NCBI GenBank assembly: GCA_002309655.1
Contig: DBXM01000051.1
Span: 2,856-66,855 of the forward strand
Source of the DNA: Mageeibacillus sp. UBA1212
GTDB taxonomy: Bacteria; Bacillota; Clostridia; UBA1212
DNA: 64,000 bases
Direction: 5' to 3'
Shown here: positions 13,076 to 59,672 of the stretch, one piece after another
Position numbering within the stretch: position 1 is the stretch's first letter
Layout: each line of letters opens with the position of its first letter
Position numbers and translations under genes: made by a program
Notes under the pieces: generated by a model
What the model was told of the DNA's origin: nothing
Seen by the model: only the letters and a program-made list of their open reading frames with translations
Databases searched by the model: none

Positions 13076-14332
13076 TTACGGCAGCACAAACTCGTAACCC
13101 TGCGACCTGGCGTAATCGATGAACCACCCGAGATTTGCGGTCGTAAGTTCAGACGTCGAGTGGAGGTACAATATGCACCCGGGGAAAAGCGCCGTCTTAA
13201 GGATCTCCTTCCCCTGCTCGATTGAAGGCTCTTTCGACGCGTCGTAGTCCATGTACGCGAACGTCCAGAACACCGTCTTGTACCCGAGGTACTCCGCCAG
13301 CACAATGTCGCGCTTAGAAGTCGAGCCGGACGGCGGCCTGAAATAGACCAGGTTGTAGGAATACCCGAGCTTTGCGTCAAGCCTCCGCTTGAAGTTGTTC
13401 ATCTCGTTCACGAACGTCTCGCGCGACTCGAACGGCAGCTTGATGTGCCTGTCGCCATGCGAACCGATGATGTGACCTTCGTTCACGATTCTCGGCACGA
13501 ACCTTCCTGACGAGGTCCATATGAACCCGCCTGTCAGGAAGAAGATCGCCTTCACGTTCTTGGCTTTGAGCGTGTTGAGAACGGTATCCATCGTGCCATC
13601 GTCGTAGCCGGCCGTGAACGTTAAACAAATCTTTTTCTCGGTGCTCGTTGGCAGTCTGTCAAAAGAATTATGCTGCGCGATGAAGCCAAGCGACTCCTGA
13701 CCGCGGTCCCATATTGCGACCCTCTGCCCGTTTTGATACGTGAACCTGCCGCACGACCACTCGGCAGAACTGGGATTTGTATCGGCGAAAAACTCGCTCG
13801 AAAGCCCGTTCAGCACCGAAAAGTCGAATTCGCTCGGCTCAATGATCTGCGCACCGCCACCCGGAACAGCCGTCCTCAAAGTGCCGGGAACCGGCGTCGG
13901 CGTTGGCGTCGGCGTAGGTGTGGGCGTAGGAGTAGGTGTGGGCGTAGGAGTCGAGGTTGGCGTCGGCGTGGGAGTCGGCGTAGGTGTAGGTGTAGGCGTT
14001 GGAGTGGAGGTTGGCGTCGGCGTCGGAGTAGGCGTCTCCGTGGGCGTGGGCGTCGGCGTCGGTTCCGGAGTCGGAACTTCGGTCGGCTCGGGCGTCTCCT
14101 CTATAAAAGGCGTTTCAGTCGCGTCCGTTTTATCCGTATCCGCCGCAAGAACGTCGCCCTTCTGCCTTTGCGGGTCGTTCTCCCTTCCCGTAGCATCCGC
14201 GCTGTCCGCCCTGAAAGTTCCTGATACAATCATGAACACAACAACGGCAACGGCAGCAGCAGCCCCCGCCGCCGACAATATTGATTTGAGCCGGTTCAAA
14301 CCGTTCTCCATAAATCTCCTCCGCTCAGTCAC
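13076..14332 (-). CDS. Membrane-anchored polysaccharide deacetylase (NodB-homology, PdaA-like) with a (TP)n linker.
   Basis: N-terminal TM, about 40-residue TPTPTP linker and NodB motifs ([25 protein letters not shown]). Confidence 0.7.
13880..14070 (-). repeat. Coding hexanucleotide-type repeat (GGNGTNGG-like tracts) encoding the (TP)n linker.
   Basis: Runs of ggcgtcggcgtaggtgtgggcgtagg on the plus strand. A similar tract recurs at 16262-16345 and 60085-60185. Confidence 0.7.
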
Positions 14333-14338
14333 GCCCGC

Positions 14339-15037
14339 TCAGTCGGCAAGCACCGTGAGCCTGAAACTTCTAACCACGTCCTCGATATCGCTCTTGAACA
14401 TGGCAAATTCTTCCGTTTTATCGTAGGTCACCATCACCATGTAGCAGCACTTCGGCCTTTTTGCACAGTAGATGTAACCGTAAATGTTCGCTTCGTCGCC
14501 GTACCCTTTAAAATACGACGAATATAGGTCGGTATTCTCGCTTCCGACGTTGATAACGTCCGCAGTCGTGAACTGAAACCCGGAATAATCGTCCGAAAAC
14601 AGCCCCTCGCGAATGCGCTTCTCCCAGTCCTCAAGAACCTTCTGAAGCGTCATCTCGCCGTAGTCGACGCCCTCCTCCGCAAGGTAGTAAAACCTGATTT
14701 TCACGCCGTCGTACTTCTGCAGCGAGAACACCACACCGTCAATATCCTTCGTGGCCACCGCCGGCGTCAGCACCGAAACCAGCCCTGTCTCCCGGTCCAT
14801 AAAGAAGCCGCCCTGCCCCTTTTCGGCAGACCAGTCTTCCGGGTAGTCGTACCTGAAGAAGTACCTCGAAGCGTTGAACGTGAGCTTGCCCTCCGGCGGC
14901 TTGTCGTCGATCACCCTCTCAAGCTCCTTGATGACCGGCCAGCTGAAAGCCAGCACGACGGCAATAACAAGAATCAGCAGGAACACGAACCGCTTCCCGC
15001 CTGTGTTGTTGTGTTTAACTTCTCCGTCGTTTTTCAC
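14339..15037 (-). CDS. Hypothetical membrane-anchored protein with a GTG start. Paralogue of the 29361..30101 lipoprotein.
   Basis: GTG at 15037 preceded by aaggaggg SD about 9 nt upstream. One N-terminal TM. Shares DRETGLVSVLTPAVATKDIDG with DRDTGLILVMAPLVSTIDDDG of the 29361..30101 product. Confidence 0.5.
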   Translation of the reverse strand: MKNDGEVKHNNTGGKRFVFLLILVIAVVLAFSWPVIKELERVIDDKPPEGKLTFNASRYFFRYDYPEDWSAEKGQGGFFMDRETGLVSVLTPAVATKDIDGVVFSLQKYDGVKIRFYYLAEEGVDYGEMTLQKVLEDWEKRIREGLFSDDYSGFQFTTADVINVGSENTDLYSSYFKGYGDEANIYGYIYCAKRPKCCYMVMVTYDKTEEFAMFKSDIEDVVRSFRLTVLAD

Positions 15038-15112
15038 GGGACGTGTTCCCTCCTTTCGGGAATGAGTTTAATGATGAATGTGAGGTGAAATCACCCTCAC
15101 CGCAAACAAGCT

Positions 15113-15452
15113 ATGTCAAAGCGCTAAGTTTTGAGCTATTTTTGCTCGTGCAAACCCGAAGCTGTATGAATATACTGCGAGAGGTTTGCACAAGCAAAGC
15201 AATTCGCTCAGCAATTCGTCGTCAGACACATTAGTCTGATTCTTTTCGAGCGAATTGCGTAAAGAGCCCGGAATCCGCTTTTAAATGAAAACGCTTAGTT
15301 TCGAGCTATTTTTGCGCGTACGGGTCCGAAGGTGTACAAGTGTACTCCGAGAGGCCCGTCCGCGCAAAGCAATTTGCCGAGCAATTGCCACTGGCACCTT
15401 ATTTTCACTCTTATACGGCAAATTGCGTAAAGAGCCGAAAGAAAGCGTTTTC
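15113..15452. repeat. Two tandem ~170-bp intergenic units, each predicted to form two conserved stem-loops. Candidate structured RNA of unknown class.
   Basis: Unit 1 spans 15113-15282 and unit 2 spans 15283-15452. Stem A pairs 15144-15156 with 15183-15195 in unit 1 and 15314-15326 with 15353-15365 in unit 2; the AAA/TTT pairs become GGG/CCC. Stem B pairs 15199-15209 with 15248-15258 in unit 1 and 15369-15379 with 15416-15426 in unit 2 (gcaattcgctc/gagcgaattgc versus gcaatttgccg/cggcaaattgc). Conserved unpaired gcgtaaagagcc follows each stem B. Confidence 0.4.
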
Positions 15453-15453
15453 A

Positions 15454-16683
15454 TTAGTGGTCGATGCGGCGGATTTCATAACCCTCCGCGCGGATATAAT
15501 CGATCAAATCGCCCAGCACCGTTGCGTTCGTTGACGAGACAGCGTGCAGCAGGTATACGCAGCCGGGGTGCAGCGTATCCTTCATTTTCTGCAGCGACGC
15601 AGCAGGTTCAGGCTGGGCAGTTGGCTCGTAGTCGCCGTAGGCGAACGACCAGAATACCGAGTAGTATCCGAGGTAGCTTGCGAGCGCAAGGTCTCTCGGG
15701 CAGCTGGCGCCCTGGGGCGGCCTGAAGAAAAGCATTGTAAAGTCGTCGCCGAGAACCTTCTTGAGCTTCCTGTAGACGGAGTTGAGCTCCTCCACAAATT
15801 CCTCGTTGGAGAGCGTCGGCATGACCTTGTGGTGTTCCGTGTGAGAGCCGATAAGGTGCCCTTCGGCGAGCATGCGCTTCATAATGGGAAGAGTCTTGCT
15901 GCCCTCGTCGACGAAGCCGCCGGTCACGAAGAAGATCGCCTGAACGTTCTTAGCCTTAAGGGTGTCGAGAATCTTCTCGGTGTTGCCGTTTTCATATCCG
16001 CAGTCGAAGGTCAGATAGCAGACCTTCTGATCGGTGTTCTTGCGGTAGATGCCGCCGTAGTTTCTGAGGTAGTTGAGCGTGCTCTGGTAGCGGTCCCAGG
16101 GATAGGTGACGTTGCCGTTGGCGTCGCGTTTGACGGCGCCCGGATACCAGTCGAAGCTTCCGTCGGAGCAGTCCTCGAACGCGGTTCTGGGAATGTCATC
16201 CAGGAACGAGAAGTCGATATCGGCGGGGTCAATGATTCTCGCTGCGACGTCGTCGATTCCGTGAGGCGTTGTAGGATTTGAAGCCGTGGGAGCCGGTGTG
16301 GGGGTAGGCGTCGGAGTCGGCGTCGGCGTGGGAGTCGGCGTCGGCGTAGGGGTAGGCGTGGAAGTCGTGCTTCCCGTCTCCGGAGGAACGTCAGTCGCCG
16401 GATTTACGTCGGGAGTAGTTTCCCCGGGAACGGCGGTTTCGTCGCCCTGAGGCAGCGGAGTGGCTTCCGCGGATTCGGTATTGTCCGCCGGAGCTTCTGT
16501 CGGGGTGGCAATCGCCACGTCGTCTGTTGGCGACGGGTTGTTCCTGTTCTTGCCGGTTTTAACCAGCGCCGCGATTTCGACGCCGATAAAGATGGCAAGA
16601 ATGAGGATGATTATGATCATAAAAGTCGACTTTTTGTTGCCGCTGAATTTTGAACCTTTAACGTTTTTATCATTTGCATTCAT
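15454..16683 (-). CDS. Membrane-anchored polysaccharide deacetylase (second PdaA-like paralogue) with a (TP)n linker.
   Basis: N-terminal TM, TPTPTP linker, NodB motifs (CYLTFDCGYENG, HLIGSHTEHH, RPPQG). Confidence 0.7.
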   Translation of the reverse strand: MNANDKNVKGSKFSGNKKSTFMIIIILILAIFIGVEIAALVKTGKNRNNPSPTDDVAIATPTEAPADNTESAEATPLPQGDETAVPGETTPDVNPATDVPPETGSTTSTPTPTPTPTPTPTPTPTPTPTPAPTASNPTTPHGIDDVAARIIDPADIDFSFLDDIPRTAFEDCSDGSFDWYPGAVKRDANGNVTYPWDRYQSTLNYLRNYGGIYRKNTDQKVCYLTFDCGYENGNTEKILDTLKAKNVQAIFFVTGGFVDEGSKTLPIMKRMLAEGHLIGSHTEHHKVMPTLSNEEFVEELNSVYRKLKKVLGDDFTMLFFRPPQGASCPRDLALASYLGYYSVFWSFAYGDYEPTAQPEPAASLQKMKDTLHPGCVYLLHAVSSTNATVLGDLIDYIRAEGYEIRRIDH

Positions 16684-20187: not shown

Positions 20188-21555
20188 TCAGCCGAACAGC
20201 AGCGCCTCGACGAAATCCGCGCCGGTCTTCCCGACCGCGACTATTCTCGCGCCGAGTTCCTTTTCCGCCTCGTCAACGGTAATGTCGTCGAGGAAGACCC
20301 GCTCGCCCGCCTTGAGCATGTTGACCGTTATCAGCACGCGGTCTCCCTTTTTGACGCCGGACTCCTTAAGTTGATCTATAAGGTCACGGCCGGTGATAAG
20401 GCCCGAAACCGTCACGTTGCTGCCGAAAAAGTCGTTTCTGATCGCCTTGACCTTAAAATCCGGCTTTTTGCCGCACGTGCGCGCGAAGTCCGCGACTTTT
20501 TCCGCGACCTCTTTAAGCTTTCTGTAGGCGATCTCGCCTGTCGCGAGCGTTCCCTCAAGGCGCCTCCTTTTAAAGAAGAGCCTGCGCCGCAGCTTTTTCG
20601 CCGCCTCGCGGTCTTCGAGCACCTCGCTAACCTCCGATTCCAGAAGCCTCAGCATGCCCACGCCGTCCTCAAGCGACGGAAAGCCGTCGTATTCGTCCTC
20701 GCCCGGCAGCGGCAGCCCCGCCTTCACGTAAAACTCGTCGGACGCGTACACGAACGAATTCCCGCGCATGATACGCGCCATTTGCCTGTAGTCCTCGATC
20801 AGCCTGACCGTCTCCAGCGCCTCTTTTTCGGTGAACGGCCTGAGCGGGCAAAGCCCCTCGCGGTACCTTGTGAGACCGACCGGAACCACCGAAACCGAGT
20901 TGAAATTCTCCGGAAGCGCCAGCAGCGAATCGAGCGTGAACTTCAGCTCCGCGCCGTCGTTCCAGCCGGGAACGAGCACTATCTGGCCGTTCACGGTGAT
21001 TCCCGCGTCGAGAAGCACCTTCAGTTTTTCCGCGATGTCGCCCGCGCCTCTGTGACCCAGCATTCTGACCCGCAGCTCCGGGTTCATCGTGTGGATCGAC
21101 ACGTTCACCGGCGAAATGTGGTAGCCCGCGAGCCGTTTCAGTTCCTGCATCGTGCAGTTCGTCAGCGTGACATAGCTGCCGGTCAGGAACGAGAGCCTCA
21201 GGTCGTCGTCTTTAAAATAGAGCGTGTCCCGCATTCCCGGCGGCATCTGGTCGATGAAGCAGAAAATGCACGAATTCGCGCAGTGCCGGTCCTTCGCCAG
21301 CATCGGGTTCTCGAACTCGATTCCCGCGTCCTCGTACTCCTCTTTTTCAAGAACCGCCGTGAACTCCGTGCCGTCCGGCCTCACCGCCGTCACCTCGGGG
21401 TTCGCGTCGGCAATGTAGTACCTGTAGTCGAAAATGTCCACAAGCTCATGTCCGGAAACGGCCGCCACCGCGTCGCCGGCTTTTAATCCCGCACGCTCCG
21501 CGGGACTTCCCGGGTCGACGCTTTTTATGATTTTTTCTTTAAGCTCATAATGCAT
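20188..21555 (-). CDS. DUF512-family protein (N-terminal PDZ-like domain plus a CxxxCxxC radical-SAM-like core).
   Basis: CANSCIFCF cysteine triad. Position immediately upstream of der, as in many Firmicutes. Confidence 0.6.
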   Translation of the reverse strand: MHYELKEKIIKSVDPGSPAERAGLKAGDAVAAVSGHELVDIFDYRYYIADANPEVTAVRPDGTEFTAVLEKEEYEDAGIEFENPMLAKDRHCANSCIFCFIDQMPPGMRDTLYFKDDDLRLSFLTGSYVTLTNCTMQELKRLAGYHISPVNVSIHTMNPELRVRMLGHRGAGDIAEKLKVLLDAGITVNGQIVLVPGWNDGAELKFTLDSLLALPENFNSVSVVPVGLTRYREGLCPLRPFTEKEALETVRLIEDYRQMARIMRGNSFVYASDEFYVKAGLPLPGEDEYDGFPSLEDGVGMLRLLESEVSEVLEDREAAKKLRRRLFFKRRRLEGTLATGEIAYRKLKEVAEKVADFARTCGKKPDFKVKAIRNDFFGSNVTVSGLITGRDLIDQLKESGVKKGDRVLITVNMLKAGERVFLDDITVDEAEKELGARIVAVGKTGADFVEALLFG

Positions 21556-21773
21556 GGCCGTCCCCCGGCGACAATTCCCGCCCGCGCTTTTCCGTCAATC
21601 AACTTTGACGGCCGGACCCCGCAAGGCAAAAAACACTAAAAAAAATACTGTCTTACACCCACAAGGCACATCGTTTTCGTCTCTGTGCCGCGGTCAAAGG
21701 CAGTAATAAAACCTGAAGCGGATAAAAACTGACAATTCCGGAGCCGACCCCGGGAACGAAACGCCCGTTACTC

Positions 21774-21806
21774 AAAAACAGCTGTCAATAAAATCAACAG
21801 CTGTTT
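21774..21806 (-). terminator. Terminator hairpin 12 nt downstream of the rpmF stop.
   Basis: aaaacagctgt-(11-nt loop)-acagctgtttt forms a perfect 11-bp stem whose ends make A/T tracts in both orientations. Confidence 0.45.
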
Positions 21807-21818
21807 TAAGAGACGGAA

Positions 21819-22001
21819 TCATTCCTCTGCCATCTTGATAACCTCACGGCCCTTGTAGTAACCGCAGGAACCGCACACGGAATGCGCGAGTTTAAGATTA
21901 TGGCACTGCGGGCATTTCACAAGGCTCGGCGCCTCCAGCTTCCAGTTAGCTCTTCTGGAACGACTTCTTGCCTTAGACCATCTTCTCTTCGGACAAATCA
22001 T
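21819..22001 (-). CDS. rpmF: 50S ribosomal protein L32.
   Basis: 60 aa. ...PKRRWSKARSRSRRANWKL...CPQCHNLKLAHSVCGSCGYY zinc-ribbon L32 pattern. SD gcaggagg upstream. Confidence 0.8.
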   Translation of the reverse strand: MICPKRRWSKARSRSRRANWKLEAPSLVKCPQCHNLKLAHSVCGSCGYYKGREVIKMAEE

Positions 22002-22095
22002 TTTTCACACCTCCTGCTGTAAAAGCTGATTTTTTCAGTTTCGCGTGCTTCTTCAGAAGCGTCGCAAAACGCTATCTTCAAAACAGACGGATGTT

Positions 22096-22124
22096 ATTAT
22101 AACTCTATTGCGGACCCAAGTCAA
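22096..22124 (-). promoter_or_regulatory. Sigma-A-type promoter for rpmF.
   Basis: Minus strand reads TTGACT-17 nt-TATAAT (-35 at 22119-22124, -10 at 22096-22101). Confidence 0.5.
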
Positions 22125-22194
22125 CAAGTTTTTTACGAAAAATCGAGAAAATCCGTAAAAATCGCAAAATAACGCCGCAAAAAACCGCAGGACA

Positions 22195-22240
22195 GCCGGC
22201 GCGCGGCAAATATTAGCGCGCGCCGGCCTTCCCTTTTTAA
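22195..22240. terminator. GC-rich hairpin downstream of the lipoprotein gene. Orientation ambiguous.
   Basis: gccggcgcgcg-(11-nt loop)-cgcgcgccggc forms a perfect 11-bp stem. T-rich tracts lie on both sides (ccctttttaa on plus, gcggtttttt on minus). Confidence 0.35.
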
Positions 22241-22273
22241 TCATCCATTAAAACCGGTAACAGGGTTAAAGCA

Positions 22274-23581
22274 TCACCCGTTGAAAGGCATTCCCGGCGA
22301 CGTGTGGTGGTAGAACGTCTCGATCTCGTAGTTGAAGGGATGCGTCGCCTTGGCGGTGGGCTTGGTGCTCGGCTGCTCGGTGAAGGTCATATTGTAGTCG
22401 TACGCGGCCCAGCCGTCGTTCTCGTCGTTGGCGGCGACTGCGTTGATCGCGATCGTCAGATAGTAGGTCTGACCGTCGGTGGAGGCGTATTTGATCTTTC
22501 CTGCCGGGAACGGTCCGCCCGCGTTCCAGATTGCGAACGACATGTTGCCCTCGGGCGACACGTAGAAGAACTTGCCGTCCATGTCGGTCCAGTAGCCCTG
22601 GTACTGCTCTACGAAATCAGAGATGATCATGTCGTTGAAGAACTCGGGATAGCCGGGCTGGGAGTGGCGGTAGAACTTGGTGATGCCAACCTCGAACGGA
22701 TGGTTCGCGAGCGCCGCGTCGGGATTCGACTGAATGTCCTCGAACGAGAGGTAGAACGTGTAAGCCGACCAGCCGCTGTTCTCGTCGTTGGGAGCGACGG
22801 CGGAAATGTCGACGGTCACGTTGTACTGGTCGCCGGACTTGTAAACGTTGGAGATCTTGCCGCCCGGGAACGGTCCGCCCGCATTCCAGATCGCGAAGAA
22901 AACGCTTCCCTTGTCGGTGATCTGGAAGAAGTTGCCGTCGATAGCGGTCCAGTAGCCCGCGTATTTGGAGACGAAATCGGCGATAGCGCGCTCGGTGAAG
23001 AACGACGGGAACGCGGCCTCAGTGTGGTTGTAATACCTTCTCTGAACCGTCTCGCCGGGAATCGTGCAGTCGATCGAGCGGGGATTGGTGTGCGCGTTGT
23101 CGATGACCGAGAAAGTATATTCCTTCTTCTCGGAGCCGTCCGTGGAAACCAGGCAGGTCAGGAAGTAGAGTCCGTCGCCCGCCTTGGCGACCTTTGTGAC
23201 CTCACCTGCCGGGAACGGTCCTCCCGCGTTCCAGATCGCGAACATCGCGTAGTACTTGCCGCCCTCCTCGGAGAACGTAATGAACTTTCCGTCTTCCTCG
23301 GTCCAGTAGCCCTTGTGGTTGTCGAAAAATTCCTTCATATAGTCGGGCTCGGGCGTCTCGGTGACCGGAGGTTCGGTCGGAGGAGCGGACGGAGGCGGCG
23401 AAATTTGAGGAGTCTGGTTTGCCGCAGGGTCTTCAGTGGCCTCGGGTGCGCCGGTCGAGTTCTGGGAAGAAGGCGTTTCCGAAGGCGCTTGAGTGGAAAA
23501 ATCGAAAAGCGACGAGAGATCGCAAGCCGTGAACATGAACGTCACTGCGATAAGCGTCAGAATTGCAATCAGTTTTTTCAT
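22274..23581 (-). CDS. Secreted lipoprotein with three tandem ~118-aa repeats of an unknown domain.
   Basis: Signal peptide plus lipobox FTAC. The motif AIWNAGGPFP(A/G)GK recurs three times at about 118-aa spacing. Confidence 0.55.
   Translation of the reverse strand: MKKLIAILTLIAVTFMFTACDLSSLFDFSTQAPSETPSSQNSTGAPEATEDPAANQTPQISPPPSAPPTEPPVTETPEPDYMKEFFDNHKGYWTEEDGKFITFSEEGGKYYAMFAIWNAGGPFPAGEVTKVAKAGDGLYFLTCLVSTDGSEKKEYTFSVIDNAHTNPRSIDCTIPGETVQRRYYNHTEAAFPSFFTERAIADFVSKYAGYWTAIDGNFFQITDKGSVFFAIWNAGGPFPGGKISNVYKSGDQYNVTVDISAVAPNDENSGWSAYTFYLSFEDIQSNPDAALANHPFEVGITKFYRHSQPGYPEFFNDMIISDFVEQYQGYWTDMDGKFFYVSPEGNMSFAIWNAGGPFPAGKIKYASTDGQTYYLTIAINAVAANDENDGWAAYDYNMTFTEQPSTKPTAKATHPFNYEIETFYHHTSPGMPFNG
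22490..23250 (-). repeat. Three ~355-bp tandem coding repeats inside the lipoprotein gene.
   Basis: ccgggaacggtccgcccgcgttccagat(t/c)gcgaa recurs at about 22500, 22861 and 23210. Confidence 0.6.
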
Positions 23582-56082: not shown

Positions 56083-58146
56083 TCATCCTCTGAAAACGAA
56101 CTCGAACCTGCCGCCCGGGGCCGCCTCGCCGTCCGTGTAGAGATTCAGGATCTCGCCTTCATTGTCGCCGGTAAGGTTGTTGTCGGTCCATTTATAGCCG
56201 AATTCAGCCGGCTTTCCGCCGAGTCCCAGGCCGAGAACGGTCCGCTCGATCCTTATCTGGATTATATTCCTGCGCACGTAAATGTCCGCTCCGCCGGCAA
56301 CCTCCCAGTTCCAGCCGCCTTTCGAACGCTCGACGACCGCCCTGCTGCCCTCGGGATTTACTCTGTTCACGACGAACTCGAACCCTTCCCAGGAGTCCGT
56401 TCCCGAGGCTTGAGTGTCGAGGAAGAGCCGCATCCAGCCCTCGCCGTCCGAAGCAGTGATCACGTCGGCGCACTCCGCGTAAAAATACACGAAATTGTCG
56501 TCGTAGGCAACCTTGACAGCCGCAACGTCGTTCCGCGCGGTGTTGTTCTTGTAGGTCTTCCCGCCGTAGCCCTTCGAACCGTTTTTGCGGCTTCTTTCAG
56601 TCGTGCTTCCCACGTACGTGTAGGTCGTGCCGACGTCGTCCCACTGGGAAATCTTTCCGCCGACGTCGATGGTCTTCTGCGCCGCGGGAACAACCGTATC
56701 CTCAACGCCCTTGAAGCGCCTTATGTTCTCGCACAGCTGGTAGTAATAGTAGTCGCGCATCTCGCCGAGAGAGGGCTCGCAGTCGCGGCTGTGTTCGGTG
56801 TCGAACTGGTCGACCATCGTGTTTTTAAGCGTCTTGTCGCCGGCCCAGGTTTCGGACCTGATCGCGACCCACTCGTTCCAGCCGGTGACGAAAATGAACT
56901 CCGGGTCGTTGTTGAGCGCGAAGTCCCACTGCTGCTGGAAGTTGATTCCGTAGTATTTCGAATTCGCGATATTTTTGTCGACAGTGACCACGCTGCCGTC
57001 TCCGAGCTTATAGGTGTAGCTGTAGTCGCCCTTCGCGTAGCTCCTGCCCATGACGTTGTAGCCGCTCATGGCGGTGATGCAGTTGCGCTTGTAGTCCGCG
57101 TTCTGGGCGACGCCCACCGTGATCTCCTCGACCGTGCCGTCCGGTTTTCTGTAGACGCACTGCGGGTAGACCGAGAGCCAGCCCCAGTAGCTGTTCGAGT
57201 TTTCGGTGCTGAAATACGTCGCCTCGTTGTACTTGAACGTAAAGAAATTCCTGATTTCCTTGTCTTTGCCGGACCACCCGAGAGCGTCGGGATACGCGAG
57301 AATCAGCGGTTTCCCGTTCCACATGAACCAGAGATCCTTGTATTTTTCCTGGGAATAGACCTTTTTGTAGAGCTCGCGCAGCTGCGTGTTGGAGTTGTCG
57401 CCCGGTCCGAACGGCAGCATGAATACGATGCACGGCGCGTTGACGCCCTCTTTCCTGGCCTGCCCGAACACCTCGAACAGCGCCGTGAACGACGCCTCCC
57501 ACAGGAAGGTTCCGTTCGTGTTGTCGAGAATGATGCAGTCGACGCCTGCGTCCGCAAGCAGCTCCGCCTGCTTTCTCAACACGTATCTGTCGGTCGTCGA
57601 GTAGTAATTGTAAATGGGCTCATCCCAGAAATGGTAACCGCCGACGCCCTTCCAGACCTTGTGGTTGTAGTCGTGGGTGGCCTTTTCGCGCTCCTCGTCC
57701 GACTCAAGCGTCGCGAGGATCTGGGTGACGTTCCTGATGCCGGTGGACAGCGAGAGCTCCTGATGCCAGGAGGAATAGAAAATGCCGACGAATTTCCCGT
57801 TTTGGGTACTTGACGGAACGGTGCCGGTTCTCAGGGTCGAAGAGTATTCCGTGCCGCCGTTCGAAAGCGTGCGCCCGAGGCCGTCGACAGCCGCGTAGCT
57901 TTCGGGGTGAACGAGTCCCAAGGCAACCTCCGTAACCGGATAGCGCGCCTCAATATCGTAGGCCTCTTCATCGGAAAGAGGCGCCGGCGTGACGTAAGGA
58001 GTCGCCGGCGGAGGCACCTCAGTAGGAATCTCAGTCGTCTTCGGAGCGGATCCTCCCGGGGCGCATCCCGCAAGAATTCCCGCGACCAAAACGGCCGCGA
58101 TTGCGAGCGACGCAGTCTTCTTTAAACCGGATAAATGTGAACGCAA
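56083..58146 (-). CDS. Large lipoprotein, probably a glycoside hydrolase with a TIM-barrel-like core and a C-terminal beta-sandwich domain.
   Basis: Lipobox LAGC. FVTGWNEW-type block. C-terminal Gly/Trp-rich beta-region. Confidence 0.45.
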   Translation of the reverse strand: MRSHLSGLKKTASLAIAAVLVAGILAGCAPGGSAPKTTEIPTEVPPPATPYVTPAPLSDEEAYDIEARYPVTEVALGLVHPESYAAVDGLGRTLSNGGTEYSSTLRTGTVPSSTQNGKFVGIFYSSWHQELSLSTGIRNVTQILATLESDEEREKATHDYNHKVWKGVGGYHFWDEPIYNYYSTTDRYVLRKQAELLADAGVDCIILDNTNGTFLWEASFTALFEVFGQARKEGVNAPCIVFMLPFGPGDNSNTQLRELYKKVYSQEKYKDLWFMWNGKPLILAYPDALGWSGKDKEIRNFFTFKYNEATYFSTENSNSYWGWLSVYPQCVYRKPDGTVEEITVGVAQNADYKRNCITAMSGYNVMGRSYAKGDYSYTYKLGDGSVVTVDKNIANSKYYGINFQQQWDFALNNDPEFIFVTGWNEWVAIRSETWAGDKTLKNTMVDQFDTEHSRDCEPSLGEMRDYYYYQLCENIRRFKGVEDTVVPAAQKTIDVGGKISQWDDVGTTYTYVGSTTERSRKNGSKGYGGKTYKNNTARNDVAAVKVAYDDNFVYFYAECADVITASDGEGWMRLFLDTQASGTDSWEGFEFVVNRVNPEGSRAVVERSKGGWNWEVAGGADIYVRRNIIQIRIERTVLGLGLGGKPAEFGYKWTDNNLTGDNEGEILNLYTDGEAAPGGRFEFVFRG

Positions 58147-58510
58147 AGCAGGTTCCTTCCTTTCGTTGTCTGGGAAAACACTGATTTAATGCTCTTTACG
58201 CAAGCGGCGAATAACTGACTGCACGTGATTGAGCGTTGCACGTTATTCTCTGCTGCGTTTAGTCGCATAAGGTGTCTAACGACAGATTTGCTGCCGCTTG
58301 CTTTTCGAGAGCTCCCCTCTCGCAGTACCTCTGTACAGCTTCGGGGTCGCGCTCGAAAAAATAGCTATTAACTCAGCGTTTTCCTTGAATTCGCTTTTAG
58401 CGCTTTAATGATACCTTTTGGACCGCTTTTTGTCAATAATAATATGACTGTTCGGGAAGAATCAATACCGTCAAAATCTGCCGAATTGGGCAGAAAATTG
58501 CCCGAAAGTA

Positions 58511-58539
58511 TTGACTTTTGCCCGAATTCGTTGTATAAT
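58511..58539 (+). promoter_or_regulatory. Strong sigma-A-type promoter for the XRE-Fic module, with flanking repeats.
   Basis: TTGACT-17 nt-TATAAT. Direct repeat ttgcccgaa at 58497 and 58518. Inverted repeat tgggca-gaaaat-tgccc at 58484-58500. Confidence 0.55.
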
Positions 58540-58567: not shown

Positions 58568-58798
58568 ATGGCAGTCAACTATATGAAACTGTGGCATTTG
58601 CTTCTGGACAGAGGCCTGAAAAAGGTCGATCTTGAACGCATGTCCGGCATTTCACACTACACAACAAAAAGAATGACCAGAAACCAGAACATCCCTACCG
58701 ACGATCTCGGCCGTATCTGTCTTGCGCTCGAATGCAAAGTGGAAGATATTATTGAGTTTATACCCGACGAATCGTTTATTGCGGTACAAAACAACTGA
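58568..58798 (+). CDS. XRE-family helix-turn-helix transcriptional regulator (76 aa).
   Basis: SD aagaggtgg. HTH pattern [35 protein letters not shown]. Confidence 0.65.
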
Positions 58799-58820
58799 CA
58801 AACCGGAGGACGAACCGTTC

Positions 58821-59672
58821 ATGAAAACATCAATCAGATTTTTTGAAGATACCGCGGTAAGAGCCGTCTGGGACGAAGAGAGTTCCAAATGGTGGTTTTG
58901 CGCCGCGGACATCGCGGAAGCGCTGACCAAAAGCAGGAATCCGCGCGTATATTGGGCAACCGTGAAACGAAGAAATCCTCAGTTGATTGCAATTTGCAAA
59001 CAACTGAAACTCAGAGCTTCCGACGGCAAAAAATACCTCACGGACGTTGTCGACGAAAGCGGTTTGAATACCGTTATCGCCCTGATTCCGAGCAAAAAGA
59101 GCGAAGTATTCTCAAAGTGGATGAAGAACCTTGAAACTTCTCTGGACGAGAAAAGCAGGCTGAAAGCGTACGAACTGTTCGACAGCGGCTTCATTGACTA
59201 CATCGAGGTTGGAACGGTCAAAGGGCTTCAGCAGATTCACGCGTATATTTTCGGCGGCCTTTACGATTTTGCCGGACAGATCCGGAAGCTGAACATAGCC
59301 AAGGGCGGCTTTGCGTTTGCGCCCGCAATGTATCTTGCCGAAAACCTTAAAACAATCGAGCGCATGCCCGGGAACACCTTCGAGGAAATCGTTGCAAAAT
59401 ACGTCGAAATGAACGTCGCCCACCCTTTCATGGAAGGCAACGGCAGAAGCACAAGGATATGGCTTGATCTTATACTTAAGAAGAATCTCAATCTGTGCGT
59501 CGACTGGAGCAAAGTCAACAAAAAAGACTACCTGGCCGCAATGCAGCGAAGCGTTGTCAACACGGACGCCATCACGGACCTTTTTCGCAACGCCCTTACC
59601 GGCGACATCGACAACCGCGAAATTATAATGAAAGGCATCGATTATTCGTATTACTACGAAGCGGAAGAATAA
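58821..59672 (+). CDS. Bro-N (KilA-N-like) domain fused to a Fic (AMPylation) domain.
   Basis: N-terminal Bro-N pattern [29 protein letters not shown]...ESGLNTVI...SEVFSKWM. C-terminal canonical Fic motif [14 protein letters not shown] ggagga. Confidence 0.75.

Follow-up and report, generated by a model that had tools for sequence, protein, structure and literature searches.

The 64,000-nucleotide window analyzed here (positions 2,856 to 66,855 of contig DBXM01000051.1, assembly GCA_002309655.1) comes from the clostridial genome Mageeibacillus sp. UBA1212 and contains an intergenic spacer, 15038-15453, that lies between two minus-strand genes and is mostly filled by two adjacent copies of a structured element, U1 and U2. 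Both are full copies, placed on the plus strand at 15118-15281 (U1) and 15286-15453 (U2). U1 is recognized by its fold, a conserved core pattern, a covariance-model match and its row (winU1) in an alignment of 19 related units, termed A6, and U2 by its fold and a covariance-model match. As an initial annotation of the window had described, the spacer is flanked by a polysaccharide deacetylase gene (Pfam Polysacc_deac_1; 15454-16683, minus strand), whose stop codon abuts U2, and by a GTG-start gene adjoining U1 (14339-15037, minus strand) that encodes a 232-amino acid membrane-anchored protein with no Pfam family. Both genes are context and form no part of the element. The two units align where that annotation placed them, with a mean column identity of 81% along their whole length.

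Folded as plus-strand RNA, U1 reaches −61.7 kcal/mol (z −5.7 versus dinucleotide shuffles) and U2 −75.1 kcal/mol (z −8.9), and for both units none of 200 shuffles folds as well as the native sequence. The minimum-free-energy folds of both contain the two helices first noticed, stems A and B. Stem A is gctcgtgcaaacc/ggtttgcacaagc in U1 and gcgcgtacgggtc/ggcccgtccgcgc in U2, and the exchange of AAA:UUU for GGG:CCC that had been reported between them is present in these folds exactly as quoted. Stem B is likewise a perfect 11-bp helix in each unit, gcaattcgctc/gagcgaattgc in U1 and gcaatttgccg/cggcaaattgc in U2. The duplication of gcaattcg in U1, which had been thought to allow mutually exclusive pairings, is real, but covariation gives no support to the alternative pairing, the second copy being represented in relatives only by a conserved GCAAU motif. 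The segments gcgtaaagagcc and GCGUAAAGAGCC had been called single-stranded; they are largely the 3ʹ strand, in its inner portion, of a closing helix, P1, that had been overlooked.

Each unit is a three-way junction closed by P1, a long imperfect helix, on the strand that reads CCGAAG...CGAGAGG. The inner portion of P1 is formed by the pairing of GCUAUU with AAGAGC, interrupted by a conserved A-G mismatch, and the outer flanks pair too, as GAAAACGCUU does with AAGCGUUUUC in U2. The 5ʹ arm of P1 in U1 (15118-15137) is followed by stem A (15141-15198), stem B (15199-15258) and the 3ʹ arm (15265-15281); the corresponding parts of U2 lie at 15286-15307, 15311-15368, 15369-15426 and 15433-15453, all on the plus strand. 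Stem A carries the invariant core of the element (15156-15184 in U1 and 15326-15354 in U2, plus strand), which consists of the internal loop CCGAAG/CGAGAGG round a 7-bp apical hairpin with a conserved U-U mismatch. In A6 the core occupies columns 39-67, which are invariant or covarying, and the mismatch is present in 19 of 19 rows. The window contains three occurrences of the 29-nt core pattern CCGAAG..GTA......TAC..CGAGAGG, where 0.00 would be expected by chance, and the third belongs to a copy, U3, that the initial annotation missed and that folds like U1 and U2.

All members of the family share a common plan. P1 is 15-28 bp long with a conserved internal loop, and its arms (15-28 nt) bound every unit as imperfect inverted repeats. 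Stem A is built of a lower helix, sometimes an extra hairpin, the invariant CCGAAG/CGAGAGG loop and the 7-bp apical hairpin. The junction between stems A and B approximates NUAG or AAAG, and the nucleotides just before stem B are GUAG in some members and AAAG or AAAA in others, including those of the window. Stem B is a 10-11-bp helix round a variable insert of 4-150 nt, usually a hairpin followed by (U/A)ACCUUAU, and 2-3 unpaired nucleotides separate it from the 3ʹ strand of P1. Unit length ranges from 165 to 250 nt across the family, and the loops and junction nucleotides are invariant across family-level taxa. By-eye comparison of the surroundings of CCGAAG/CGAGAGG with the hammerhead core, the hairpin-ribozyme core and the K-turn consensus found none that fits, and the likeness of ...UACNNCGAGAGG to the sarcin-ricin loop sequence looks coincidental.

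Covariation and the structured strand

The helices are kept by compensatory changes, both between U1 and U2 and across dozens of homologues. Covariation was counted on MAFFT alignments that were not fitted to structure, because an alignment made with the covariance model (A5) misplaces P1 and stem B at long inserts. One, A4, comprises 38 homologues with the window excluded and the stem B insert trimmed; the other, A6, comprises 19 full-length units, namely metagenome members of the window subfamily and the three window copies. In A4, pairing is standard in 89.4% of helix cells, compared with 66.5% in shuffles, which places covariation above chance level; the sequences of A4, like those of A6, are related, and the search pattern fixed their core. 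Both sides have changed in 38 of 47 pairs, and the covariation score is 0.616, against 0.19 in shuffles and at most 0.153 with partners slid by one to three columns. The window subfamily (A6) gives 89.1% paired against 75.6% in shuffles, changes on both sides in 27 of 54 pairs and a covariation score of 0.360, compared with at most 0.095 when partners are slid.

Several features distinguish the two strands. Among the AT-rich majority of the family, 81 of 83 units are more stable when folded from the CCGAAG strand than from the complementary one, the difference averaging about 10 kcal/mol. On that strand the family consensus helices contain 125 G-U against 48 A-C combinations, and G-U is the commonest pair type at several positions of the 38-homologue alignment; the well-defined helices of the window subfamily have 18 against 3. 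The A-G mismatch of P1 is conserved in 18 of 19 window-subfamily units, and tandem G-A/A-G pairs are found in stem A of 10-11 of the 19. On the complementary strand, these purine mismatches of P1 and stem A would be pyrimidine-pyrimidine. Since folding energy is indecisive for U1 and U2, the strand assignment relies on counts of G-U and G-A together with homology to the AT-rich relatives; the structured strand of the two units is likely the plus strand, antisense to both flanking genes.

That strand could in principle act as single-stranded DNA, the units being recombination or transposition sites that a recombinase recognizes in the manner of attC sites or IS200/IS605 ends. The units resemble attC sites in that the folded strand is antisense to an abutting open reading frame and reaches its stop codon, sequence is less conserved than structure, the middle part is of variable length and tandem arrays occur. 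Canonical attC boxes, however, have the layout R''/L''...L'/R' (RYYYAAC ... GTTRRRY) and a neighbouring IntI or cassette array. The ends of U2 (TGAAAAC... and ...GTTTTCA) do not fit these boxes and lack the R''/R' core sites, and each unit is a three-way junction, not a bulged hairpin, with tandem G-A and U-U pairs that are more typical of RNA. No integrase, HUH transposase or cassette array lies nearby, the genes of the window being ordinary housekeeping genes in mixed functional order. Moreover, U1 and U2 are antisense to a long co-oriented gene run, so the structured strand would not be the lagging-strand template if these genes follow replication. A DNA site of this type is very improbable.

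A dispersed family with unstable arrays

The core pattern was used to scan one-genome-per-species contigs, which yields lower bounds, and it was found in at least 119 genome blocks, almost all from uncultured gut or rumen Clostridia. Labels among the matches listed include Oscillospiraceae, Acutalibacteraceae, Congzhengia, Ruminococcus, Fimenecus, Coliplasma and others, and several genomes were matched more than once, at unrelated intergenic sites. A second, loose pattern was aimed at the GC-richer subtype of the window in metagenomes, and among the 120 contigs listed, the true members were 20 motif sites on 16 contigs. On 15 of these 16 contigs, identity to the window (78-88%) is confined to the unit and the flanks cannot be aligned; the sixteenth belongs to a sister strain, L224. 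A covariance model built from 38 homologues, with the stem B insert removed and no window sequence included, recovers exactly U1, U2 and U3 at E values that are rough and near 1e-7 (U1 is matched at 15141-15198, E 4.7e-7). In 100 sources the same model gives 111 matches, including copies that lack the exact core pattern. Copies within one genome are 57-95% identical (mean 76%), so several old lineages coexist per genome, and copies from different genomes are on average 65% and at most 94% identical.

Candidate core-pattern matches outside the Clostridia, which may be homologues, contamination or chance, occur in L084, L098 (Helicobacteraceae) and L051 (Phycisphaerales); the first two score 44.9 and 55.3 bits with the covariance model. 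A phage origin was rejected, the core pattern being present on only two viral contigs.

The family has no counterpart among the models of Rfam 15 that were searched. At gathering thresholds the whole window yields no match to any riboswitch, leader, small RNA, ribozyme, IS605-orfB, HEARO or group II model. With E values up to 10, the two window loci and one relative return only chance-level eukaryotic microRNA and small nucleolar RNA matches, and the only matches in 15 homologous loci are T-box and tRNA hits elsewhere in those loci. The initial annotation had matched the element to no known riboswitch class, and these scans agree. The portion of the literature covered by the search, which did not extend to a motif-by-motif comparison with a catalogue of 3161 unnamed candidate structured RNAs (PMC8040213), contains no description of the element. 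The element is an uncatalogued, dispersed structured repeat or, in other terms, an orphan structured RNA motif.

The third copy in the window, U3 (58176-58381, minus strand), lies 43 kb from U1 and U2, in the 5ʹ region of a TTG-start gene (56083-58146, minus strand). It belongs to a long-stem-B subtype and is identified by its fold (z −5.5), the core pattern and a covariance-model match (E 1.4e-7). Stem A occupies 58302-58359, stem B approximately 58200-58301 and the 3ʹ arm of P1 approximately 58176-58197, all on the minus strand, and identity to units on unrelated metagenome contigs is 81-88%. About 25 nt upstream, on the structured strand of U3, lies a candidate sigma-70-like promoter (58408-58436, minus strand; TTGACA, 17 nt, TATCAT), proposed from its 11 of 12 consensus matches.

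Divergent from U3 (58568-59672) are a small Cro/C1-type helix-turn-helix gene with a strong promoter (58511-58539) and then a gene with Bro-N and Fic/DOC domains, a pair that looks like a mobile or toxin-type module. Elsewhere in the window, the largest apparent intergenic gap (21555-22274) contains a short gene for an L32-like ribosomal protein (MICPKRRWSKARSRSRRANWK...), together with a TTGACT/TATAAT promoter and terminator-like hairpins, and is ordinary.

The U1-U2 array varies between closely related strains. In the flanking genes, the metagenome contig of the sister strain matches the window at 98% identity, yet its version of the spacer (L224:320-870) contains four units where the window has two. 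One is intact in stem A and two are internally deleted, one lacking the apex of stem A and the other all of stem A. The last unit is chimeric, with a 5ʹ half equal to U1 and a broken stem B. Internally deleted or partial tandem copies are found at other loci as well, and tandem pairs are frequent (L024, L064, L091, L215 and L219). Public contigs that carry the gene for the 232-amino acid protein (L242-L244, from samples that include SRR094437, SRR094926 and SRR5324825) all end 148 nt upstream of that gene, inside the array, which indicates that short-read assemblies break at the repeat. Exact-protein look-up for further strain variants gave only contigs ending in the array, or no match. Copies truncated at the 5ʹ end were considered as evidence of reverse transcription and judged weak, since most apparent solo 3ʹ ends are internally deleted or partial tandem copies.

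Beyond the units themselves, two paralogous polysaccharide deacetylases with long Pro-Thr linkers (13076-14332 and 15454-16683) flank the 232-amino acid gene, an arrangement round the repeat array that suggests local gene duplication. A 57-amino acid minus-strand open reading frame runs through U2 (15281-15456) and opens at an ATG overlapping the deacetylase stop codon (TAATG). Open reading frames cross U2 on both strands, each starting with MKTLSF, because P1 is palindromic. Coding potential was rejected for them as chance, given that they show no conservation among relatives, which differ by indels.

Genomic position and neighbouring hairpins

With genes round the homologues called simply as longest open reading frames, copies of the element show a consistent position. 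With the structured strand taken as reference, 49 of 60 downstream genes are encoded on the opposite strand, and the median distance from the last paired base of the unit to the stop codon of such a gene is 4-6 nt. In the window subfamily, the downstream gene is opposite-strand in 13 of 17 cases, with several gaps of 2-6 nt. U2 follows this rule, its P1 3ʹ arm reaching the deacetylase stop codon (15454-15456, minus strand; the simple call gives a gap of 3 nt). U3 is an exception, with its TTG-start gene downstream on the same strand. The identity of the neighbours is far less regular. All-against-all BLASTP clustering of 1431 open reading frames within 5 kb of 125 copies identified no specific partner protein family beside them; the largest shared families are generic (ABC ATPase, response regulator, AraC and P-type ATPase) and reach at most 11 of the 125 loci. 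In the window, the neighbours of U1 and U2 are the deacetylase, the protein with no Pfam family, an aminotransferase and PlsY.

These data bear on the initial suggestion of a tandem riboswitch or leader for the membrane-protein gene. A minus-strand cis-regulatory RNA controlling the 232-amino acid protein would suit the location of the units between two co-directional genes on that strand, and U3, like a few relatives, does precede a gene on its own strand. Adjacent homologous covarying units with conserved unpaired nucleotides in an intergenic region also resemble the tandem aptamers of glycine- and tetrahydrofolate-type riboswitches. However, copies occupy unrelated loci at which no downstream gene family or pathway recurs, they sit at opposite-strand stop codons, and the G-U and G-A evidence points to the plus strand, the wrong strand for the flanking genes. 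No terminator-like site was found on the minus strand after U1 or U2, nor a terminator or Shine-Dalgarno-sequestering expression platform after U1, and there is no match to an Rfam family. In addition, the sister-strain array differs in number and is rearranged, with two units crippled; a conserved leader would not vary in this way. A variant with terminator mimicry, in which P1 shares an arm with a neighbouring hairpin, was rejected, as the G-U/A-C ratio and folding energies put that hairpin upstream on the structured strand. The minus-strand riboswitch is largely refuted and the least credible of the explanations considered, and ligand sensing by the units is not indicated. The other options named in the initial annotation, a pair of small RNAs or a structured 3ʹ untranslated region, retain some plausibility.

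Hairpins accumulate at one end of the element. A strong, near-perfect hairpin with arms of at least 11 nt lies within 20 nt of the 5ʹ end in 37 units, compared with three at the 3ʹ end, and in many copies it is only 3-10 nt away. The 3ʹ arm of the 5ʹ-flank hairpin is frequently a copy of the final 10-24 nt of the unit itself. Such upstream direct repeats, of at least 10 nt of a unit's own 3ʹ tail, are present in 14 of 71 units, against 2% in cross-locus controls; most are partial tandem copies, and L022 provides the sole clean flanking repeat, of 17 nt. In AT-rich relatives, the hairpin beside P1, upstream on the structured strand, shares arm sequence with P1 and could pair with it alternatively. 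In the window, a short hairpin gtgagg...cctcac (15080-15100), unassigned to a strand, lies 17 nt ahead of the U1 5ʹ end, at the place where a terminator-like hairpin is found in relatives, and is also present in the sister strain.

Near-perfect palindromes of the form GGAGCTGTAAAAAA...TTTTTTACAGCTCC or ...CTGTAGCAAAATG...CATTTTGCTACAG occur at many loci in different Clostridia genomes, almost only beside the 5ʹ ends of units (for example, L112:4245-4290, L117:4129-4173, L085 and L030). A few lone palindromes were also seen (L073:7457, L085:6569, L117:2481 and L082:3701) and could be empty targets or collapsed units. By the same token, the hairpins beside units may be targets or, instead, units collapsed to their P1 arms.

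A further hairpin lies within the element. In AT-rich members, an A-tract stands before the stem B hairpin in 28 of 48 units, but a T-tract after it in only 8 of 48, a bias that would make the hairpin an intrinsic terminator of the opposite-strand gene that the unit abuts; in the window subfamily, stem B contains just a small hairpin and no terminator. This orientation, together with the abutment of units on opposite-strand stop codons, fits an explanation in which the element is a REP-like module in the 3ʹ untranslated region of the abutting mRNA, here that of the deacetylase, and stabilizes or terminates its 3ʹ end. The minus strand would then be the relevant one, and in the window units it too gives a stable fold. 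Rho-independent terminator-like sequences are carried by repeats such as pneumococcal SPRITE (PMC10969869). Yet the excess of G-U over A-C (125 to 48) and the conserved purine-purine mismatches are on the other strand, termination at the embedded terminator would leave most of the structure outside the mRNA, and the window subfamily lacks such a terminator. A 3ʹ untranslated region module appears improbable on this evidence.

Two explanations of the positional rule are possible. One is targeting, whereby the element, by analogy with group IIC introns, would insert 3ʹ of terminator-type hairpins. The other is survivorship, whereby copies between a stop codon and a terminator would do little harm, especially if they bring a replacement terminator. 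Group IIC introns have domains I-VI with a catalytic domain V, exceed 600 nt and usually contain a reverse-transcriptase open reading frame. The units described here, at 165-250 nt, have no domain V or VI, no reverse-transcriptase open reading frame nearby and no match to the Rfam group II models. Their likeness to group IIC introns is one of insertion niche only, as seen in the 37 units that lie at most 20 nt downstream of a strong hairpin; such introns are typically found just downstream of terminator stem-loops or other inverted repeats (PMC1702495). A further idea, speculative and improbable, is that the element is a small mobile RNA, non-autonomous, which finds terminator-type hairpins by base-pairing and homes to their 3ʹ side, its 5ʹ arm being complementary to the 3ʹ arm of the hairpin. 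In this model, the element would be copied in by an enzyme acting in trans from a gene elsewhere in the genome, and the target arm would reappear at the 3ʹ end of the element after insertion, creating P1. If true, the element would be a bacterial counterpart of short interspersed nuclear elements or a guide-RNA-like mobile element with its own replacement terminator.

Known repeats, probable mobility and significance

Bacillus cereus bcr repeats and enterobacterial REP/BIME sequences are dispersed structured intergenic repeats. BOX, RUP and SPRITE of pneumococcus are repeats of this kind in Firmicutes (PMC10969869). With all of these, the present family shares a multicopy, intergenic distribution, a size of 100-250 nt, stable folds, tandem clustering or nesting and a frequent location near gene ends; with SPRITE it also shares the terminator-like hairpin, found here in the AT-rich members. 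It differs from them in having no sequence or model similarity in the Rfam scans and no known parent insertion sequence. Furthermore, a three-way junction with an invariant internal loop and covariation across family-level taxa sets it apart from single-species hairpins and terminal-inverted-repeat elements. In behaviour, the structured intergenic repeats of Firmicutes are the closest match, and the element belongs to none of them.

REP/BIME units are imperfect palindromes of 20-40 nt with a conserved GTAG head and are mobilized by a RAYT transposase, whereas the units here are three-way junctions of 165-250 nt in which GUAG precedes stem B only in some members. Miniature inverted-repeat transposable elements have terminal inverted repeats, uniform short target-site duplications and a parent insertion sequence with a transposase; of these, the terminal inverted repeats are present as the P1 arms. 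Unlike a retron msr-msd or the omega RNA of TnpB/IscB, the element has no adjacent reverse-transcriptase or tnpB/iscB gene that recurs.

Taken together, these observations favour, on balance and with modest confidence, the view that U1 and U2 belong, as a tandem pair, to a dispersed repeat family with RNA structure and probable mobility, and are not a tandem riboswitch. Mobility is deduced solely from distribution. The element would be, or have been, a non-autonomous mobile element, or would have spread by recombination. Its structure would be selected as plus-strand RNA in the case of U1 and U2, and less likely as single-stranded DNA. Copies would survive mainly between a stop codon and the next terminator hairpin, where AT-rich relatives, by bringing their own terminator facing the abutting gene, would cause little harm, and they would then duplicate and delete in tandem, producing pairs such as U1-U2. 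A local effect is likely, in that a structure of such stability (−60 to −90 kcal/mol) may insulate neighbouring genes or terminate transcription between them. For U1 and U2, the most likely consequence is that a very stable roadblock or insulator would separate the deacetylase gene from the next one.

A number of observations count against this view of U1 and U2 as mobile repeats. No clean empty site or uniform target-site duplication was found, and no transposase, reverse transcriptase or other partner protein recurs among the clustered open reading frames within 5 kb of the copies. The collection of homologues with a fixed core pattern makes the invariance of the core partly a matter of ascertainment and leaves decayed copies under-sampled. 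As regards the strand, the CCGAAG strand of the window subfamily has the better folding energy in only 11 of 17 units, U1 is marginally more stable when folded from the minus strand, and the search for promoter-like sites gave none for U1 or U2. U3, behind a good promoter and before a same-strand gene, appears leader-like from its sequence context. Finally, the old copies within genomes keep their helices, a finding that fits a host-selected RNA gene family too.

In such a family, the units would be a multicopy small RNA or protein-binding RNA retained by the host, for example a decoy or scaffold for a protein that binds the CCGAAG/CGAGAGG loop. Covariation is deep even among copies only 57-79% identical within one genome, the loops and junction nucleotides do not change across family-level taxa, the strand bias is typical of RNA, and a strong candidate promoter lies directly upstream of U3. 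Conversely, there is no room for a promoter in many copies, given the hairpin 3-10 nt before their 5ʹ end, and none was found for U1 and U2. Crippled copies are tolerated, copy number differs between near-identical strains, and the stop-codon rule is unexpected for free-standing small RNA genes. Host selection as the principal explanation is unlikely, but it is the alternative that deserves the most weight beside the dispersed mobile repeat.

If the family is as it appears, it would be among the better-supported uncatalogued structured elements of the uncultured Oscillospirales that dominate the gut and rumen. In practical terms, it would explain assembly breaks at certain intergenic spacers of such genomes, offer a variable marker at the strain level and account for a source of false riboswitch calls. 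Its biological interest lies in an element without coding capacity that occupies a narrow niche between stop codon and terminator and nevertheless keeps an RNA-type structure. Learning what recognizes the CCGAAG/CGAGAGG loop and how a non-coding element spreads could reveal a new trans-acting mobility or RNA-binding system in Clostridia.

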